Assembly (NCBI GenBank): GCA_964549075.1
Contig: CAZJUB010000083.1
Coordinates: 1 to 11,572, forward strand
DNA length: 11,572 bases
Source of the DNA: an uncultured archaeon
Lineage (GTDB): Archaea; Asgardarchaeota; Heimdallarchaeia; Heimdallarchaeales; Heimdallarchaeaceae
Direction of reading: 5' to 3'
Part shown: piece after piece, positions 556 to 11,063 of the stretch
Numbering within the stretch: the first letter of the stretch is position 1
Layout of the letters: every line of letters begins with the position of its first letter
Made by a program: the position numbers and the translations under genes
Notes under the pieces: generated by a model
Database searches by the model: none
Seen by the model: the letters and a program-made list of their open reading frames with translations, nothing else
Told to the model about the DNA's origin: nothing

Positions 556-1743
556 TTAAGATTTGAATAAATCATAGAAAGCTAAAATCGAATAAATAGC
601 TGTTCCTTTCCACAAAATATCCTCGTCAACATCGAATTTAGAGTGATGATGAGGATGTATGATACCTTTTTCTTCATTATACAATCCAAGAGCGATAAAA
701 GCTCCTTTAGTCTTGTTAAGATAAAACGCGAAATCCTCACCACCCATTGTTAAGTCTACATTTTCGACTTTATCAAGCGGTTCTAAGATTTTTATTACAT
801 CTTCTACACTTTCATCATCATTGATTGTTGGAGGATAATAAATGCCATCTATTGCATACTTGAATGTACCTTCACATCTCCATGCATGACTGTATCCTTC
901 AATAATCTCTTCCATTCTTTTCAAGATAAATTCTCTAACTTCATTGCTAAAAGTTCGAAATGTTCCTTCCATTTTTGCTATATTTGGTATGATGTTGTGG
1001 GCATCACTCCCCTCTAGCATCGGGATTGAAATGACAACTTTATCAAGTGGATCTATCTCTCTACTCACTATTTTCTGGATTGCATTATATATGTCAACCA
1101 TTACAGCTGTTGGATCAAATGTTTGATGAGGACTAGCTGCGTGTCCACCTTTTCCTTTGATTTCAATCTGAAATTGATCAGCAGAAGCTAAAAAAGGTCC
1201 TTTACGTGTCGCAATTACACCTGTAGGTTGTTCTCTCCATACATGAATTCCAAAAATTTGGTCTACGTCATCTATATGTCCTTCTTCTACAATCTTCTTT
1301 GCTCCTCCTCCACCTTCTTCTGCTGGTTGGAAAATAAGTTTGAGTTTTCCAGTTAGTTTGTCTTTATGTTTGTAAACAATGTTTGCTGCTGTAAGAAGCA
1401 TAGCTGTATGAGCATCATGACCGCAAGCATGCATCTTTCCTGGAATCTTGCTACAATATGGTTTATCATTGTCTTCAGTTACATTAAGTGCATCAATATC
1501 AGCACGTAGAGCTATTATTTTGCCTTTCTTTCCAGAATCAAGAATTGCAATCAATCCTGTTCCAGCTGTTTTAATAACTTCATATCCAATCTTGGTTAGT
1601 TCTTCTAGAAGATAAGCTGAAGTTTCGAATTCCTCAAAACCAGTTTCTGGATACATATGGAAATGTCTTCGTTTTTCAATAACATATTCTTCCATATCTT
1701 TTGATTCTTTAATTAAAATCTGTTTGAATTCACTATTGTCCAT
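556..1743 (-). CDS. M20D family amidohydrolase / carboxypeptidase (aminoacylase-like)
   Basis: Motifs RRHFHMYPETGFEE, LRADIDAL, MHACGHDAH, FQPAEE, GKGGHAASPH, MGGEDF, HHHSKFDVDE are typical of M20D peptidases. Confidence 0.93.
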   Translation of the reverse strand: MDNSEFKQILIKESKDMEEYVIEKRRHFHMYPETGFEEFETSAYLLEELTKIGYEVIKTAGTGLIAILDSGKKGKIIALRADIDALNVTEDNDKPYCSKIPGKMHACGHDAHTAMLLTAANIVYKHKDKLTGKLKLIFQPAEEGGGGAKKIVEEGHIDDVDQIFGIHVWREQPTGVIATRKGPFLASADQFQIEIKGKGGHAASPHQTFDPTAVMVDIYNAIQKIVSREIDPLDKVVISIPMLEGSDAHNIIPNIAKMEGTFRTFSNEVREFILKRMEEIIEGYSHAWRCEGTFKYAIDGIYYPPTINDDESVEDVIKILEPLDKVENVDLTMGGEDFAFYLNKTKGAFIALGLYNEEKGIIHPHHHSKFDVDEDILWKGTAIYSILAFYDLFKS

Positions 1744-6095: not shown

Positions 6096-7958
6096 ATGAG
6101 TAAGCAAGATAAGACTTTAAGTAAACCTGTAGTTTATGTCTTAATAGCTCTAGTAATCTTAAGTTCAATTTTTGCAATTATGATGTTTGGTCCTGGTACT
6201 GGACCAACTAATTCACTTTTTAAATCGACTTTACGTTATTATACAAAAGGGACTGAAGAGTTATATTATGTTGATTATGCAAAGGATATAATTCAAGATA
6301 TAAGAGAAATTGGTGTAGATGTTACCAGTTTACCTTCAGAATATTCTCTTTTTTTGGATGAGGTATATGGTGCAAAAGAGTATGATATGGCCGTTGTAGA
6401 ATATGAAGGTTTAAACTCACCTCATCTTGACTTATTATTTAAAGAAGGAGCGACAGATAACATTTTCAATTTTGAGAATAATATGGATGGTAATGTTACT
6501 TTGAATCTAATTAACAATATTACCGTTGAAACCGATTTTAATGCAAGAAAAACCTTATTTTATCAACTTCAAGAACATATAATGACCAATGTTCTCCCTA
6601 TGGTTCCATTATTTACTCCAGTAAGAGCTTATGCTTATTGGGATAATATTGAAGGTTTCACTAGTACAATCGGGATATCTCAGAGCCTTCCCTATATGAC
6701 TTTTAATGGTTTACATGATTCTCAATCTTCTACAAATGAATTGTTTATTGGTTCTGGTAAATGGTTTGATCTTAATCCTCTTTCAATGAGTGAGGATGCC
6801 GAGAAACTAATTGTATCATTTATGATGGATAAACTTATCCAATTGGACGATAAAGGAATGGCAACAAAATATGGTTTAATTGATAATTGGGAATATTTGA
6901 ATGACACCACTCTTCTGCTTCATGTACGTGATAACGTACATTGGCAACCTGATGTTGATGGTCTGTTCCCTGCAGAGACTCTGAGCACTAGTGATGTGCT
7001 TTTTACCTTAGATATGTATACTAATAGTGAAGCTAATATTAATGCAGATTTGTTTAATTGGATTGACTCTTATGAAGAATATAACAGCAGTACAGTAGCC
7101 ATTTATATTGACTCATTTCCTTCCACCCCGGAAAAGGATCCTTATGCTTTTGCAGTTGAAGACCTTTCAATTTACCCTTTTCCTGCATATTATCTTGATG
7201 TTGCACCAACTATTCATGAAATTCTGACTTCAAATAGGTGGACAAAATTCTCAGATGATCCATTTGGTACTGGTAAATATATTTACAATTCTACAGAAAG
7301 CCAAGTAGATCTTGCTGCAGTTTTACATAAGTTTGGAAATTGGCATGGAATAGGCGTCTTACCTGGTCAAACTACAAATTTAGCTTTTAATACTATCGAA
7401 GTCCAAATGTATGGTGACAGTTATTCTATGCATCTTGCACTTCAAGAGGGGAGAATAGATTTAGCTGATTTCAAAAAAAATCCAATAATTGAGGATGCAA
7501 TACCAGATGAAGGTTTTAAAGTGGAGTTCAAGGTTGAAAATTCTTTAATCTTCTTGGCATTCAATTTGCAAAACGAAGTATTTGGAGGAGAGAATAATTA
7601 CTTATCAACTAATGAAACTGGAGTGTCAAAAGCACTAGCAATAAGAAAAGCTATAGCCTATGCTCTACAGAAATCTCTGACTAATTCAAGATTACATAAT
7701 GGTCACTATAATATTACAGATACTCCACTACCAACATATTACCAAGATTATTACTATACGGGAGTCACAAAATATAATCATGATCTCAATCAAGCTGTAA
7801 AATATCTAATCTTAGCAGGATTCAATATCTCTACAGGTACTCAAACCGAAGAAACGAGTTTTAGTTTTATGAGTTCAATGATAAGTGTAGGAGTTATCTC
7901 ACCAATCTTAGTACTTATAATAAATAGAAGAAAGAACAAAGTGAAGATAAATGACTAG
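6096..7958 (+). CDS. Family-5 (OppA/DppA-like) solute-binding protein, N- and C-terminal hydrophobic segments, segment order permuted
   Basis: LNP...DKLIQLD...NWEYLNDTTLLLHVRDNVHW, SDVLFT, PFGTGKY, LAFN, IRKAIAYAL, YNHDLNQAVKYLILAG, plus IQDIREIGVDV / RKTLFYQLQ / LPMVPL. Hydrophobic N-terminus, C-terminal TM followed by RRKNK. Confidence 0.85.
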   Translation: MSKQDKTLSKPVVYVLIALVILSSIFAIMMFGPGTGPTNSLFKSTLRYYTKGTEELYYVDYAKDIIQDIREIGVDVTSLPSEYSLFLDEVYGAKEYDMAVVEYEGLNSPHLDLLFKEGATDNIFNFENNMDGNVTLNLINNITVETDFNARKTLFYQLQEHIMTNVLPMVPLFTPVRAYAYWDNIEGFTSTIGISQSLPYMTFNGLHDSQSSTNELFIGSGKWFDLNPLSMSEDAEKLIVSFMMDKLIQLDDKGMATKYGLIDNWEYLNDTTLLLHVRDNVHWQPDVDGLFPAETLSTSDVLFTLDMYTNSEANINADLFNWIDSYEEYNSSTVAIYIDSFPSTPEKDPYAFAVEDLSIYPFPAYYLDVAPTIHEILTSNRWTKFSDDPFGTGKYIYNSTESQVDLAAVLHKFGNWHGIGVLPGQTTNLAFNTIEVQMYGDSYSMHLALQEGRIDLADFKKNPIIEDAIPDEGFKVEFKVENSLIFLAFNLQNEVFGGENNYLSTNETGVSKALAIRKAIAYALQKSLTNSRLHNGHYNITDTPLPTYYQDYYYTGVTKYNHDLNQAVKYLILAGFNISTGTQTEETSFSFMSSMISVGVISPILVLIINRRKNKVKIND

Positions 7959-8670
7959 AATAAACGAGATAGGATTAGTGGATTTGAAAGGTAAGCCATT
8001 AATCCAAGCATTTAGTGGAAGTGGAGCAATAGGTACAATTCTATCTGCCTTTCTCATTAAAACCTTCGAGATGGAACAAGTAGCAGTAATACATGCAGAC
8101 TCTATCCCTCCAGTAGCAATGGTTAAAGGAGGATTGATAGAACATCCGATAAGACTTTTTCAATCAGAGAATCTTTCTTTGATGACTTGTGAAGTATCTA
8201 TACCTTACAGCATCTTACCTGAATTCCTGAATACACTGGTAGAATACTATGTTGAAAAAGAAGCATCATATGTCATTCCAGTTGGAGGTCTACCGGTCTT
8301 ACCAGATAATTATGATAATGGTTATTGTTATGGTGTAGCTAATAACTCTGAAATGGTTACTTTTTTGGAAAAGAAAGAAATTGCATTGCTAGAAGAAGGA
8401 GTTATTTACGGTTCAGTTGTGGAAACCTTAGAGCTCTGTCATATACACGGTTTCAACTCTTGTTTTGCCTTACTTGCAGAGTGCGATCCAGGAATAGCAA
8501 GCTACCATGCAACAAAACAAATACTGGAGGATTTAGCGAGAATCTTTGGATTTGAATTTGATGAAGATAAATTTACAGAAGTTACAAGGGCCATTAAAGC
8601 AAGAATTGAAGAAAGTGCTAGATATATCAGAGAAGATAGTATGGAAAAAACAAGAGAAAGTCACTTGTAA
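7951..8670 (+). CDS. PAC2 family (proteasome assembly chaperone-like) protein
   Basis: LIQAFSGSGAIGTI...IPPVAMVKGG...HPIRLF, PVGG and LLAEC match the archaeal PAC2/PbaA-B pattern. 8-bp overlap with the upstream gene. Confidence 0.85.
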   Translation: MTRINEIGLVDLKGKPLIQAFSGSGAIGTILSAFLIKTFEMEQVAVIHADSIPPVAMVKGGLIEHPIRLFQSENLSLMTCEVSIPYSILPEFLNTLVEYYVEKEASYVIPVGGLPVLPDNYDNGYCYGVANNSEMVTFLEKKEIALLEEGVIYGSVVETLELCHIHGFNSCFALLAECDPGIASYHATKQILEDLARIFGFEFDEDKFTEVTRAIKARIEESARYIREDSMEKTRESHL

Positions 8671-8764
8671 TACCGACAAAAATAATTGGGCGCTTAAACG
8701 CTAATTTTCGATAAAAGAGGGATTTTTGTCGTAATTTAAACCCTCTGTTACAGCATGAATAACA

Positions 8765-8794
8765 TTTAAATAGGTTTGAGGACATTGTTATATA
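8765..8794 (+). promoter_or_regulatory. Candidate TATA boxes for the downstream ncRNA
   Basis: TTTAAATA at 8765-8772 after an A-rich stretch, and TTATATA at 8788-8794. These would place a start at ~8795 or ~8817. No + strand CDS follows. Confidence 0.5.
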
Positions 8795-8833
8795 GGTCAA
8801 GGGTTAGGCAAGATTAGGGCTTAATGGAATAAA

Positions 8834-9120
8834 AAGGGAACTGCAAACTGAACAGGAAGCGAAATCCGAAGTTTCAACCCTCCCAAGGGTAATCTCGGGA
8901 ACTATGGTTGAACCCCTTTTTAGATGGTTTGAACCCCCATTGGGCTTAGTTAAGACCTCCTAAGCCTGAAATCCCCCAGAACCAGACTCGTGTTTGGTTT
9001 AAACAGACATCTTCTGTCTGCCAGAATTTTGGCGGCTTGAGGGCTGTCGAAATGGAACCCCCAACCAAACCCTCGAAACTTCGAGCTAGAATCTCCTTCC
9101 TGTTCAGGCAGAAATCCCTT
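8834..9120 (+). ncRNA. Unidentified structured RNA closed by a bulge-helix-bulge motif (predicted 267-nt excised/circular product 8847-9113)
   Basis: About 48% GC (116/240 counted over 8881-9120) and stops in all three + frames. End pairing: 8834-8839/9115-9120, 8841-8844/9108-9111, 8848-8859/9096-9107 (12 bp perfect), 8867-8875/9075-9083 (9 bp perfect). Internal hairpins at 8881-8900 (GUAA tetraloop), 8942-8967, 8980-8999, 9004-9020, 9020-9033, 9039-9074. G-U wobbles mostly favour the + strand. Confidence 0.75.
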
Positions 9121-9143
9121 CAGGGGTTTTTTCTTCTATTTTT
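9091..9143 (+). repeat. Direct repeat copy 1 (53 bp)
   Basis: ATCTCCTTCCTGTTCAGGCAGAAATCCCTTCAGGGGTTTTTTCTTCTATTTTT. The first 32 nt are identical to 10773-10804. It ends exactly at the stop codon of the beta-helix gene. Confidence 0.95.
9111..9143 (+). terminator. Short hairpin plus oligo-T terminator of the ncRNA
   Basis: GAAATCCC-TTCA-GGGGTTTT followed by TTCTTCTATTTTT. Confidence 0.55.
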
Positions 9144-10697
9144 CTAAATTAATCTTCGCGTTCTATTGTTTGATTTTTTCAGAACTTCTGATACCCCAAG
9201 GAATGTTAGCAAAAGAATAAACGCACTAAGATAAGATTGTCCTGAAGTCTTATCTGTTTCAAAACAGTCACATTTATAACTCATCGGATACGGATCTGTT
9301 CTCTCTCTCTCCCCATCAATTTGATATTCTCCTTCTCCTTGATAATCCGTCCAATAGTTTCCAGTGTTTGTATCTTCATCGTACCAATCGCTGAAGCTTT
9401 CGTCATAAGCTTGGGAAGTTCCATCTTCTGTTCCGTTTAGATTGTTACACACGAAATAATTACTATATATTTCATTTCCTGAAGATAACAAAGAATCAAT
9501 TTTTACTCCATATCTTGTATTTCTTAAGAGAATATTTCCCACAATTTCATTATACTTTGCATCGGTTAACAGAATTCCATGACCATTGGATTCACAAGTA
9601 TTATTCACAATTGTTGCATGATATGTTTCCCAGATTCTCATACCTAGTTTGTTGTTCTTACATATATTGTTGTCAATTATGGGTGGTAAAAGGTTTGTAA
9701 AATCACCATAATATACCCAGATCCCTGAATCTTTGTTTTCCCAGCATATGTTACTAGATACAGTAATATTCGAACAACAATCTATTCTTATTCCTGAGTT
9801 GTTATGTTGTGAACACTTGTTTTCTGTGATGATAGAATCATCTGTTTCTCTGGAGAAAATGCCATCTATATTACTATTTGTGCACTCGTTTTGACTGATA
9901 GAAATATTCTGTGATCTCTCTATTATAATTCCAAAAACTCCATCTGTACAGAGGTTACTTTGAATATACGAATGCTTAGAATAGTCCATTCTTATCCCTG
10001 TATAGGTGTTTCGACGAAAAATATTCTCTGTGATGTTTGATTTTTCATAGGCTGATAAAAACATACCATTGTAGTTGTAAGCTAAAAGATTATATTGCAT
10101 GATAGTATGTGCTGTATATAAAACATAGACACCAGCTGTATTACTATGACAAAAATTACTAATTATTTCCAATTGGAGTGCATTGTTTATTAGAATCCCA
10201 TAATGATTTCCATAACATAAGTTATTTTCAACTCTTATGCCGTTGGAGTTTGTGAGATAAATTCCATAATAGTTGTGATTTGCACATGTATTGTTTTCAA
10301 TTACTGCTGTATCTTTGCTTATTTTATTAATTCCTATCCCAATATCAAGAGCAGAAATAAAACAGTTTTTTATGATAAAATGTTTTGTAGTATTATAGAT
10401 TAGTATACCCACGCTATCGTCTGTGATCACTTCTATATTTTCAATCCTGTAAGGTTCGGATACTGTACCATTTCCGGAGAATCCATAAGTTGTGAAATTC
10501 TCATCAGAAATTACCTGAATGCTTGAATGAGGAGTTAAGTCAGGTATCAATTTGAGGTCATAGACAATAGGACCTACTTTGATAGTATTGTTTTGATTCC
10601 AATTAAATTCAATAGCTTTTTGTGGTACAAAGATAAAACTCAAACCTATGAGTGCAAAAACTACAAAAACTGAGAATTTAACTATAGGCTTTTTCAT
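9144..10697 (-). CDS. Cell-surface right-handed parallel beta-helix protein (NosD/CASH-like)
   Basis: Signal peptide, GNGTVSEPYRIEN, many IxxNxCxxNxxGI repeats, GNYWTDY and DPYP C-terminal NosD-type motifs, C-terminal TM plus basic tail. Confidence 0.88.
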   Translation of the reverse strand: MKKPIVKFSVFVVFALIGLSFIFVPQKAIEFNWNQNNTIKVGPIVYDLKLIPDLTPHSSIQVISDENFTTYGFSGNGTVSEPYRIENIEVITDDSVGILIYNTTKHFIIKNCFISALDIGIGINKISKDTAVIENNTCANHNYYGIYLTNSNGIRVENNLCYGNHYGILINNALQLEIISNFCHSNTAGVYVLYTAHTIMQYNLLAYNYNGMFLSAYEKSNITENIFRRNTYTGIRMDYSKHSYIQSNLCTDGVFGIIIERSQNISISQNECTNSNIDGIFSRETDDSIITENKCSQHNNSGIRIDCCSNITVSSNICWENKDSGIWVYYGDFTNLLPPIIDNNICKNNKLGMRIWETYHATIVNNTCESNGHGILLTDAKYNEIVGNILLRNTRYGVKIDSLLSSGNEIYSNYFVCNNLNGTEDGTSQAYDESFSDWYDEDTNTGNYWTDYQGEGEYQIDGERERTDPYPMSYKCDCFETDKTSGQSYLSAFILLLTFLGVSEVLKKSNNRTRRLI

Positions 10698-10772: not shown

Positions 10773-10826
10773 ATCTCCTTCCTGTTCAGGCAGAAATCCC
10801 TTCAAGGGTTTTTTTCTTCTATTTTT
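10773..10826 (+). repeat. Direct repeat copy 2 (54 bp), duplicate of ncRNA 3' end and terminator
   Basis: ATCTCCTTCCTGTTCAGGCAGAAATCCCTTCAAGGGTTTTTTTCTTCTATTTTT. Differs from copy 1 by one G>A and one extra T. Confidence 0.95.
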
Positions 10827-11063
10827 TACTACTTCCTATTCTGCATTATAGAATACGCTGAAAGTACAATCCAGTCTTAATCTTGTCTAACAAAGAATAC
10901 AAATTACTTCTACATTTTTTAGATGTGTTTAGATGACACTGTCACACACATTTTATTCTTAATTTTATTTGTTGTAATATTGGAATGAATTTTACCATTC
11001 AACGAACTTTTCGCAATTATTTAAAAAGCATAGAAAGAATTGAAATTAAAGGCAAGTAATAGT

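Follow-up and report, generated by a model that had tools for sequence, protein, structure and literature searches.

The data point to positions 8759-9132 of the window (the whole 11,572-nucleotide stretch of DNA analyzed here) as a dedicated non-coding RNA gene of one Candidatus Heimdallarchaeota family, in which the interior of the transcript is excised at a bulge-helix-bulge (BHB) motif and closed into a circle, the circle being the product; we give this reading a probability of about 0.85. A first-pass annotation had interpreted positions 8834-9120 in this way, and the present analysis supports it; the refuting conditions that the annotation had named, as far as examined, all turned out in its favour. 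It had also taken the circle itself, rather than the exons, as the gene product. This is supported in that the interior is conserved and is found in RNA, and the exons are not, whereas the assembled RNA contigs do not separate an end product from an intermediate that is later reopened. The circle has roughly 236-267 bases.

According to the model that we propose, transcription on the + strand would start at the gene's own BRE/TATA promoter and end at an oligo-T run, as conservation suggests. The ends of the transcript fold into a helix-bulge-helix-bulge-helix motif, as the sequence and covariation show; the endonuclease EndA would then cut in both AAA bulges, and RtcB ligase would join the two ends of the interior. 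A covalently closed circle would result, and a short, poorly conserved leader and trailer would be thrown away. EndA and RtcB are the presumed enzymes, given the presence of their genes and the known pathway, whereas the joined product itself is seen in RNA contigs. Under this model, the tRNA-splicing machinery is used in a Heimdallarchaeota family to make a dedicated circular RNA, for which the only close precedent that we found is the circular signal recognition particle (SRP) RNA of Thermoproteus, a member of a known family. The gene would be a natural, compact "circularisation cassette". Two further phenomena are exposed by the locus, namely fixed-size nested candidate mini-introns that also occur in 16S rRNA, and a cassette array built on repeats of the 3' end of an RNA gene.

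Structure and covariation of the processing motif

The BHB geometry that had been claimed for this locus was recovered both by reading the sequence and in the minimum-free-energy fold. The central helix has four base pairs, formed by CTGC (8841-8844) and GCAG (9108-9111), and is followed on each strand by a bulge of three bases, AAA, at 8845-8847 and 9112-9114; the cuts would fall after 8846 and after 9113, in agreement with the joint seen in RNA contigs, which lies within the bulges. On the inner side there is a perfect helix of 12 bp (8848-8859 with 9096-9107), which would serve as the closing stem of the circle. On the outer side, the two strands at 8834-8840 and 9115-9120 form a helix consisting of the pair A8840-T9115 followed by AAGGG (8834-8838) with CCCTT (9116-9120), with A8839 unpaired. 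A further helix, P2 (8867-8872 with 9078-9083), is part of the RNAalifold consensus. The internal loop between the closing stem and P2 was inspected by eye for a K-turn and none was seen. The + strand fold of 8825-9135 has a free energy of -105.2 kcal/mol (z -3.64), and none of 100 shuffled sequences folded as well.

We evaluated covariation in an alignment of 16 sequences from five genera. It should be noted that L057, L067 and L069 were left out of all alignments, their matches to the 20-base pattern being chance matches in unrelated DNA. Pairing was retained in 95.4% of 416 cells, and 15 of the 26 tested pairs had changed on both sides; this level of covariation was reached by none of 500 shuffles, and controls in which the strands were slid against each other paired in 37-45% of cells. 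In a second set of 25 sequences, mostly from the genus of the window, 98.6% of cells pair. The central helix is paired in 100% of cells, with two of its four pairs changed on both sides (16 sequences), and its variants are ATGT/GCAT in genus g2, GTGT/GCAC in genus g4 and CTAC/GTAG in genus g5. The corresponding values are 98.8% and six of ten tested pairs for the inner helix, 100% and three of six pairs for P2, and 82% and four of six pairs for the outer helix. In every genus, the central, inner and outer helices have a distinct, compensated sequence. The length of the outer helix varies: it is a perfect 8 bp in g2, 4-5 bp in g3, g4 and g5, and 5-6 bp with one unpaired A in the window. Beside the central helix, the outer helix of the window is imperfect, and can be written with one unpaired A or with an A-C mismatch.

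The arrangement is of the hBHBh' type, with two three-base bulges on opposite strands, a central helix of 4 bp and flanking helices on both sides. The 3-4-3 geometry, the retention of which in homologues had been proposed as a check, is kept in all five genera with compensatory changes. The genome of the window encodes two ORFs of the EndA family (tRNA_int_endo; 185 and 182 aa, 101.8 and 39.2 bits) and one RtcB (544.5 bits).

Putative promoter and terminator, and strand

The TATA-like boxes and the oligo-T terminator reported in the first-pass annotation are upheld by conservation across 20 aligned sequences. The putative promoter (8759-8772) consists of an A-rich, BRE-like stretch and the TATA box TTTAAATA (8765-8772), both of which are kept about 60-75 bases upstream of the motif, and a similar box lies upstream of the g2 and g4 homologues. 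Given the usual archaeal distance between TATA box and transcription start, transcription would begin near 8795-8800, and the 5' leader, or 5' exon, would span 8797-8846 and be discarded after cleavage. The leader sequence differs between clades of the same genus. No RNA contig covers the leader or the trailer, an absence that counts as weak evidence when the data are contigs. Downstream of the motif, a small hairpin (CCCT..GGGG) and a run of six T residues at 9127-9132 together make up a likely transcription stop (9116-9132); the hairpin (9116-9126) competes with the outer helix, and T-runs follow the motif in most homologues.

The orientation of the gene can be read from its wobble pairs. 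Among 16 sequences, 4 have U-G at the column pair 18/360 and 9 have G-U at the column pair 10/371; one hairpin pair is U-G in 23 of 25 sequences. Because such pairs would be mismatches on the other strand, the transcript is assigned to the + strand. A minus-strand transcript was considered as well. It folds slightly better (-120.2 kcal/mol, z -4.22), but it was rejected, since only the + strand is compatible with the conserved G-U pairs, the promoter and the T-run.

The joined product in assembled metatranscriptomes

The RNA evidence consists of assembled metatranscriptome contigs and not of raw reads; strand, 5' and 3' ends, abundance and precursors are not visible in such data. Contigs matching the gene come from four runs of four different studies (X1, X10, X15 and X21), and their cover is confined to 8845-9114. 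In contigs of X1, X15 and X21, position 9111 is followed directly by position 8845, i.e., the sequence goes back by 267 bases, with an ambiguity of three bases (AAA). The X10 contig has loose ends that carry the same letters as this junction. The joint therefore matches the junction that had been predicted, in three runs outright and in the fourth through the loose ends, and the products are joined at the positions expected from the bulges. The joint is placed to within the AAA and not to a single phosphodiester. Compared with the window, the contigs show no other letters in three runs and a single one-base deletion in the fourth. The flanking protein-coding DNA has no cover in the same four runs, which argues against DNA carry-over.

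The excised segment, 8847-9113, has 267 bases in the genome of the window, and a circle of 267 nucleotides had been predicted. The circular joint stands, but the size does not: in each of the four runs, one contig covers only 8845-9023 together with 9055-9111 or 9114, so that, with 31 internal bases absent, the circle present in RNA has 236 bases. For this 236-base path, the length of one contig is 266 bases. A circular path in a graph of 31-letter words yields a contig that is 30 bases longer than the path, and the observed excess of 30 bases is thus consistent with a circular path.

In 24 runs, which belong to 20 studies, 40-46% of the words sampled are present. It should be noted that the RNA is readily found in public metatranscriptomes from salt marsh, mangrove, rhizosphere, sediment and marine samples, and it can therefore be followed without culture. 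The RNA occurs family-wide and is apparently highly expressed, with the reservation that contigs carry no abundance information.

A nested 31-base module

The 31 bases missing from the RNA contigs form a hairpin module (9027-9057, + strand) that is itself a candidate nested BHB mini-intron. A template scan places its central helix at 9021-9024 with 9052-9055 (three of four pairs formed), its bulges at 9025-9027 and 9056-9058, and between them an inner hairpin of 24 bases (9028-9051). A joint that skips 31 bases, from 9023 to 9055 with three ambiguous bases, is listed in X1, X10 and X21, and the aligned pieces of X15 leave the same 31 bases uncovered. Among the DNA of relatives the module is precisely present or absent. 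The BHB mini-intron template also fits a 31-base insert in the 16S rRNA gene of the relative G001, and all modules follow one fixed build of 31 bases with a 24-base hairpin.

As a last step of the model, where the module is present, a second, nested BHB-type cut-and-join would remove it and yield the 236-base RNA, a step that we regard as somewhat more probable than its absence. However, L065 and L006 lack the module already at the DNA level, and because the DNA of a close relative lacks it, the RNA contigs may come from module-free strains.

Known RNA families and other candidates

Rfam gave no match in the window at gathering scores. With E up to 10, matches in the region 8700-9250 were limited to five at chance level (a CRISPR repeat, Listeria rli38 and three pieces of animal lncRNAs), and with E up to 1, nothing was found at the element in loci of four other genera. 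The earlier statement that the RNA matches neither SRP RNA nor RNase P RNA holds, as neither family was matched by Rfam even with E up to 10. SRP RNA, including permuted forms, was set aside on the lack of an Archaea_SRP match up to E 10 and because 29 of 30 family genomes have a full-length canonical SRP RNA at another locus; the incomplete genome of the window (89.7% complete) yielded none. RNaseP_arch does not match at the element and is found elsewhere in the window's genome with 157.4 bits.

An intron-containing tRNA was likewise rejected. ARAGORN finds no tRNA in the window, only about 12 bases separate the stem from the T-run, and there is no T-arm or acceptor stem, which agrees with the view that the flanks are not those of a tRNA. 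A small protein was rejected as well, because a 19-codon frame (ATG at 8904-8906, TAA at 8961-8963) is not conserved: the L007/L014 clade lacks this ATG, and within the frame there are indels whose lengths are not divisible by three. An omega RNA of IS200/IS605 elements was dismissed on the neighbours, which are PAC2 and a NosD-like protein, or eS30 and ELP3 in other genera, with no tnpB. No C box (TGATGA) was seen in 8847-9113.

Genomic distribution and repeats of the 3' end

With BLAST, the gene was detected in 26 of the 30 family genomes searched, as opposed to none of 30 genomes from other families. A core covariance model of 135 positions likewise found it in 26 of 30 family genomes, with one marginal match among 52 others (G067, 24.6 bits, E 0.008). 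In the window the gene is flanked by the genes of PAC2 and of a NosD-like beta-helix protein; among the 28 loci in which the 5' strand is present, 24 have PAC2 upstream, and in g2 and g4 the downstream genes are eS30-ELP3. Conservation is much stronger in the circle sequence than in the neighbouring protein gene: the RNA of L065 differs from that of the window at two positions and by the missing 31-base module, while the adjacent PAC2 proteins are only 84.5% identical.

The window's genome contains one full copy of the gene. Its last ~55 bases (9091-9145) have a second copy at 10773-10827 on the + strand, with 96% identity over 10773-10823, beyond a 1.6-kb segment with one NosD-like gene (9144-10697, - strand). 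More generally, beyond the gene itself, its last 55-75 bases are found again as downstream direct repeats, two in the window's genome and six in G001, and variable gene cassettes are bracketed by these repeats. No tyrosine integrase (Phage_integrase) was found near the repeat arrays of five genomes, the sole match being on another contig of G001, and a Pfam scan of 19 ORFs of the G001 array gave only a borderline "Recombinase" match (21.4 bits). The viral contigs yielded no copy, none of them containing the 20-base 3' strand.

Interior of the circle and possible role

The interior is nearly invariant across the genus of the window. Two tandem repeats of the type GGTT(T)GAACCCC, with a T-run between them, occupy 8906-8938 (+ strand) and are themselves nearly invariant in the genus. 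They are followed by a hairpin at 8940-8969 with its loop at 8950-8959; the loop and the 3' stem carry the 10-mer GACCTCCTAA (8954-8963), which does not vary among the five genera and is similar to the 3' tail of 16S rRNA. The stem of this hairpin shows one-sided changes between G-U and G-C in four pairs and two-sided changes in two. The corresponding pattern is present as a single copy in 22 of the 30 family genomes, and 52 other genomes lack it. Next to the hairpin lies a conserved C-rich tract, ATCCCCCAGAACC (8971-8983, + strand), predicted to be partly single-stranded.

With low confidence, we suggest that the circle may be a stable, abundant scaffold or decoy RNA that presents an invariant loop resembling the 16S 3' tail, together with long C-rich single strands, to a protein partner or to G-rich or Shine-Dalgarno (SD)-like RNA. 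A broader proposal, which we consider unlikely, combines three elements: the circle would be a trans-acting regulator or decoy; a family of 31-base BHB mini-introns, also present in the 16S gene, would have invaded the gene; and the 3' end of the gene would be the recombination site of a cassette array. If this were true, the invariant loop and the C-rich strands would capture SD-like or G-rich leaders or a protein that normally binds the 16S 3' end, an RNA that is abundant and withstands exonucleases would in this way adjust translation or the maturation of the small subunit in the family, and the cassette array at the 3' end of the gene would operate with no recognisable integrase.

The searches for targets supported no function. 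Duplexes with the 16S and 23S loci of G027 and with the 16S of G001 were not better than those of 20 mononucleotide shuffles, by a crude method, and among the 23 tRNAs found by ARAGORN, only 6 have a T-arm complementary to the motif TTTGAACCCC(C). Among 2249 crude ORFs, GGAGG occurs upstream of 2.3% of ATGs versus 0.4% in a control region, so few genes carry SD-like words; this enrichment neither supports nor excludes the decoy idea.

Alternative explanations

The circle could be only a processing intermediate that is reopened into a linear, perhaps permuted, mature RNA. Circular rRNA intermediates produced by BHB cleavage and ligation are the rule in archaea, according to the accessible parts of two sources (PMC12918454, 10.64898/2026.03.23.713588), and contigs do not reveal ends. 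However, the contigs run right round the circle with no preferred break, and there is no place among them where many molecules begin or end, although contigs have little power in this respect; moreover, the conserved 12-bp closing stem with its 7-base junction loop would suit a stable circle. We hold reopening to be improbable. A still less probable possibility is that the functional product is the spliced exon RNA, about 70 bases long with an anticodon-like 7-base loop, the circle being the by-product of a large intron. Once joined, the exons would indeed form a stem with the loop CTGCAAA, and the cut would fall between the equivalents of tRNA positions 37 and 38, the canonical site of tRNA introns. 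Yet no tRNA was found, the stem-loop is not followed by a T-arm or acceptor stem, the leader varies between clades, and the letters of the loop change in L012, g2, g4 and g5, while it is the interior that is nearly invariant across the genus and that alone appears in RNA contigs.

The two remaining explanations, both very remote in our estimation, invoke DNA rather than RNA processing. In one of them, the gene belongs to a mobile element or repeat, such as a miniature inverted-repeat element (MITE) or an attachment site, and its terminal inverted repeat reflects transposition or recombination rather than an RNA motif. The direct repeats that bracket variable cassettes would fit such an element, but they comprise only the 3' end, and the full element is single-copy and syntenic; compensatory changes keep RNA pairing, including G-U pairs, the RNA circle is observed, and neither the viral contigs nor the surroundings of the arrays yielded the expected traces (a copy of the gene or a tyrosine integrase). 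A search for many dispersed copies had been suggested as a check for a MITE, and because there is one full copy in the window's genome and one per relative, a MITE or dispersed repeat was rejected; for the element as a whole, the mobile-element explanation is largely refuted. In the other, environmental strains have a head-to-tail tandem duplication in their DNA, and its carry-over into RNA libraries, which can contain DNA, accounts for the back-joined contigs. Both boundaries of such a duplication would have to lie exactly within the two AAA bulges, no tandem arrangement occurs among 25 aligned genomic copies, and the flanking DNA is uncovered in the same runs.

Comparison with known systems

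The closest known system is that of Thermoproteus, where, as far as the available part of the report describes, a stand-alone SRP RNA gene is processed by the tRNA-splicing machinery at a BHB motif into a circle (eLife 2015, PMC4731332). The stand-alone gene, the BHB processing and the closed circle are shared with the gene described here. However, the Thermoproteus RNA is a permuted member of a universal family, and its circularisation restores a known fold, whereas the gene described here matches no known family and is, as far as can be told, not permuted; canonical SRP RNA genes lie elsewhere in 29 of 30 related genomes. In the accessible portions of the literature on archaeal circular pre-16S and pre-23S rRNA and circular 23S rRNA, an end helix carries the BHB, and EndA and a ligase close the interior (PMC12918454, PMC7758197, 10.64898/2026.03.23.713588). 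The release and closure of an interior flanked by such a helix is common to both cases; in contrast, the present RNA is not an rRNA, has ~240 bases and its own promoter, and is limited to one family.

BHB introns of archaeal tRNAs and rRNAs and their circular products, as well as the tricRNAs of metazoans, are treated in the parts available of two further sources (PMC6614914, PMC4090602). The motif and the cut positions are the same as here, and the 5' part of the motif mimics an anticodon loop that is cut at the equivalent of 37/38. Unlike those introns, however, the present element has no host tRNA or rRNA; conservation lies in the "intron" and not in the exons, which are short. The circular C/D box sRNAs of Thermococcales are likewise small, abundant, circular non-coding RNAs of archaea, but, in the part of the source at hand, they require the ATP-dependent ligase Rnl and have no BHB at their flanks (PMC9014305), and the present circle has no TGATGA C box. 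Finally, the 31-base modules resemble the short BHB introns of Asgard tRNA genes, for which the accessible text gives a median of 22-23 bases (bioRxiv 10.64898/2026.10.13.758758), in their splice motif, their patchy gain and loss and a lineage in which a two-subunit EndA is common. The word "rRNA" has no occurrence in the accessible text of that paper, which does not treat rRNA there. The modules described here differ from those introns in that their hosts are a circular non-coding RNA gene and a 16S rRNA gene instead of tRNAs, and in their fixed 31-base build.

The BHB motif and the RNA circle

The bulge-helix-bulge (BHB) geometry claimed in the first-pass annotation was read directly from the window sequence, and is present exactly as described. 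On the plus strand, AAGGG (8834-8838) and CCCTT (9116-9120) form the outer helix, with A8839 unpaired and A8840 paired to T9115; CTGC (8841-8844) and GCAG (9108-9111) form the central helix; each central-helix strand has an AAA bulge on its 3' side (8845-8847 and 9112-9114); and the inner helix is perfect over 12 bp (8848-8859 with 9096-9107). The order is that of canonical tRNA introns, i.e., outer helix, central helix, bulge, and inner helix in the 5' strand, and inner helix, central helix, bulge, and outer helix in the 3' strand. The minimum-free-energy fold of 8825-9135 (plus strand) holds precisely this arrangement at -105.2 kcal/mol, compared to a mean of -84.7 for shuffled sequences (z = -3.64; none of 100 shuffles equals it).

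The interior is seen as a circle in RNA. According to a word index, part of 8760-9160 occurs in 24 runs from 20 studies (rhizosphere, salt-marsh, mangrove, sediment, and marine metatranscriptomes), 18 of which share an identical 46% of the sampled words, the maximum for any run. We aligned contigs from four runs of four studies (X1, X10, X15, and X21) to 8700-9250; it should be noted that only contigs were used, in which strand, ends, level, and rare precursors are invisible. Each run gave one contig (266, 260, 253, and 253 bases; word depths 114.7, 37.4, 5.5, and 7.1), with cover restricted to 8845-9023 and 9055-9111/9114, no letter differences in three runs, and a single 1-base deletion in the other. 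In three runs, 9111 is joined back to 8845 with three ambiguous letters; since these letters are AAA, a junction of 9113 to 8847 is compatible with the joint. In the remaining run, the contig has loose ends with the letters expected across this junction. A circular path built from 31-letter words yields a contig of the path plus 30 bases; the word size is 31 letters, and the X1 contig goes once around and then re-enters, its length being that of a 236-base path plus 30. Of the predicted 267-nt circle (8847-9113), the junction thus agrees with the back-joint in three runs, but the observed form is 236 bases long. The leader, the trailer, and the flanking protein-coding DNA have no contig cover in the four runs, so carry-over of DNA is unlikely.

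The window's genome (G000) encodes one RtcB ligase and two ORFs of the EndA splicing endonuclease family (C61:8305-8535 and C42:9514-9774; 185 and 182 aa; 101.8 and 39.2 bits). These differing paralogues fit a two-subunit enzyme, which a recent preprint reports for 44 of 60 Asgard genomes (10.64898/2026.10.13.758758). By analogy with the established BHB pathway, EndA would cut the RNA of the element and RtcB would ligate it.

Modules of 31 bases

A stretch of 31 window bases is missing from the RNA contigs: 9023 is joined to 9055, with three ambiguous letters, in X1, X10, and X21, and the aligned pieces of X15 leave the same bases uncovered, with no joint listed. This module is present in eight DNA rows (the window and loci L004, L005, L007, L014, L019, L020, and L070) and precisely absent from the other 17 genomic rows, and close relatives differ in carrying it. 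Inserts of 31 bases are also found at other positions, in L012 (columns 111-141 of alignment A1) and in L021 and L022 (150-180), each flanked by a 3-base direct repeat. In a template scan, one build fits all eleven module-bearing rows: two central strands of 4 bases, each followed by a 3-base bulge, with a 24-base hairpin between the first bulge and the second strand, from which an intron of 1 + 24 + 4 + 2 = 31 bases is predicted. For L021 and L022, the preferred register was read by hand, and differs from that of the scan owing to a T-T mismatch that closes the inner hairpin. In the window, the central strands are 9021-9024 and 9052-9055 (three of four pairs), the bulges are 9025-9027 and 9056-9058, and the predicted intron, 9027-9057, lies within the ambiguity of the observed RNA joint. 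The L007/L014 type has a perfect central helix, CCAG/CTGG. The outer helix is only 1-2 bp. The same build was found in the 16S rRNA gene of another genome, G001 (L078, ~1455-1560, minus strand), which is longer by a net 31 bases, inserted between helix 45 and the 3' tail, with 4/4 central pairs, 10 contiguous inner pairs, and a 2-bp outer helix; taking the insert out of the sequence gives exactly what is present in the 16S gene of genome G027 (L076 2950-2975). Given the shared template fit and this restored sequence, we read the modules, from their sequences, as putative fixed-size BHB mini-introns.

Removal of the window's module at the RNA level, by splicing, is in our view moderately probable. 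Alternatively, the RNA contigs may derive from strains whose DNA already has no module, as is true of the DNA of L065 and L006. However, the three difference-free contigs share the window's allele near 9003, a site at which L004 and L065 carry a different letter and one base is lacking in L005 and L006; moreover, the window and the two closest genomes all carry the module, and yet none of the 24 listed runs exceeds 46% of the words.

Covariation, strand, and promoter

In the window's genus (g1), the central helix CTGC/GCAG is accompanied by two AAA bulges (the second is AAC in L006) and a 12-bp inner helix. Among the other genera of the family, g3 has the same central helix, a G-C to A-T change in the inner helix, and a new 4-bp outer helix; g5 has CTAC/GTAG and an A-T to G-C change in the inner helix; g2 has ATGT/GCAT, bulges AAA and TAA, a 9-bp inner helix, and a perfect 8-bp outer helix; and g4 has GTGT/GCAC and a 12-bp inner helix in which five pairs differ. 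The expectation that homologues would retain the BHB geometry is borne out, each genus carrying its own compensated version. Across all genera (16 aligned sequences), pairing holds in 95.4% of 416 cells, compared to 37-45% in slid controls, and 15 of 26 pairs change on both sides (34 cells); none of 500 shuffles reaches these values. In a 25-sequence alignment, with 23 rows from the window's genus, pairing extends to 98.6% of cells, and two-sided changes are seen at nine pairs. The internal helix P2 (8867-8872 with 9078-9083) covaries too, and the excised segment is 213-290 bases long among homologues.

The element is flanked by two convergent genes, one of the PAC2 family (7951-8670, plus strand) and one for a NosD-like beta-helix protein (9144-10697, minus strand). 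The TATA-like box attributed to it is recognizable as an A-rich stretch and TTTAAATA (8759-8772), conserved ~60-75 bases upstream of the BHB motif, which fits an archaeal BRE/TATA promoter. Read on the minus strand, the conserved U-G and G-U pairs would become mismatches; these pairs, the promoter, and the T-run jointly place the transcript on the plus strand. In the alignments, the leader between promoter and motif varies among clades; in the interior, by contrast, hardly any change is seen within the genus. For example, the RNA of L065, where the PAC2 protein is 84.5% identical, differs from the window's at two positions and in the absence of the module.

Identity and distribution

Rfam 15, at the gathering score, has no match in the whole window, in keeping with the prediction of a novel RNA. 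Five matches at E up to 10 in 8700-9250 are all at chance level, and no match at E up to 1 was obtained with the homologues from the four other genera. ARAGORN finds no tRNA across the window, in agreement with the statement that the flanks are not a tRNA. RNase P RNA was rejected as an identity, being located elsewhere in the window's genome (157.4 bits). Canonical full-length SRP RNA is found in 29 of 30 family genomes at loci other than that of the element, which excludes a permuted SRP RNA. A 19-codon ORF (ATG 8904-8906, TAA 8961-8963 inside an invariant 10-mer) is not conserved among homologues and is probably meaningless. It should be noted that SRP RNA and 16S rRNA genes were not detected in the 217 contigs of G000, which fits its completeness of 89.7%. 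ARAGORN gives only 23 tRNA genes in this genome, all with an encoded 3' CCA; the length of some of them (91 and 96 bases) suggests that the program missed intron-bearing tRNAs.

A 20-base pattern from the 5' strand, searched in species-representative genomes, gave 19 stretches: 17 in Candidatus Heimdallarchaeota (including AB_125, an unclassified member of this group at NCBI), one in a Promethearchaeati archaeon, and one in a bacterial MAG, the last being a chance match. BLAST recovered the element from 26 of the 30 other family genomes (22/24 in the genus) and from none of 30 genomes belonging to five other families. A two-motif pattern matched 22 of the 30 family genomes, exactly once in each and with all five genera represented, and none of 52 genomes from six other families in the class; the reversed-pattern control gave 0. 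A covariance model of a 135-position core recovered the element in 26/30 family genomes; its single marginal match in the 52 outside genomes (G067:C1:91095-91237; 24.6 bits, E = 0.008) is probably due to chance. There is one full copy per genome, as opposed to the dispersed copies that would have pointed to a MITE, and the window's genome has two further copies of the 3' end only. Synteny is conserved: among the 28 loci in which the 5' strand is present, 24 have PAC2 immediately upstream in the same orientation, and of the four that do not, two are at contig ends.

Repeated 3' ends and cassettes

The last ~55 bases of the gene (9091 through the T-run) are repeated on the same strand at 10773-10827 (96% identity over 10773-10823), with the NosD-like gene between the two copies. 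Away from the gene, at G000:C124:5840-5880 (L003 1500-1540, minus strand), is a third, degenerate copy of the 3' strand region (85% identity). G001 has six further copies of the last 65-75 bases at most 16 kb downstream of the gene (L071 6772-14190 and L072 ~2931; a stricter pattern recovers four), all on the strand of the RNA gene regardless of the orientation of intervening genes. These repeats bound segments of 0.7-8.7 kb that contain diverged paralogues: five NosD-like proteins (31-64% identical), unknown proteins of ~220 residues (26-47% identical), and wHTH and zinc-ribbon proteins. The array stops before ELP3, fibrillarin, and Nop5. In g2 and g4, eS30 and then ELP3 follow the RNA gene (L086 1136-1318; L082 1789-1974); this RNA gene-eS30 junction has been opened by the cassette array in the window's genus, and the gene adjoining the RNA gene varies even among the closest relatives. 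By analogy with tRNA genes, this looks like repeated site-specific capture at the 3' end of the RNA gene; however, searches found no recognizable integrase or tyrosine recombinase near the arrays and no viral contigs with the site.

Possible role and comparison with known systems

Folded as a circle, the 236-base form reaches -71.8 kcal/mol, with a 12-bp closing stem, a 7-base junction loop as its cap, P2, and several hairpins; three regions are exposed, namely the loop at 8950-8959 (10 bases), a C-rich segment at 8970-8978, and, from 9021 on, an extended C-rich single strand. The 10-mer GACCTCCTAA (8954-8963) is unchanged in all five genera, with a variable flanking stem. It has ACCTCCTA in common with the 3' end of 16S in G001, and ACCTCCTAAG in common with the corresponding end in G027. 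No targets of the 10-mer loop or of the C-rich regions were found. Very tentatively, the circle might serve as a stable scaffold or decoy, its partner recognizing the 16S-tail-like loop or the C-rich tracts.

In the literature on Asgard or Heimdallarchaeota circular RNA, BHB, non-coding RNA, splicing endonuclease, and RtcB, we found no description of this RNA; the related Asgard papers concern circular rRNA (PMC12918454) and tRNA introns (10.64898/2026.10.13.758758). As a mechanism, BHB cutting and joining is already established in archaea. The closest precedent found for a stand-alone gene with a functional circle is the circular SRP RNA of Thermoproteus (PMC4731332). In contrast to the latter, the RNA described here matches no known family, is confined to one family of Heimdallarchaeota, bears candidate nested mini-introns, and anchors a cassette array at its 3' end.
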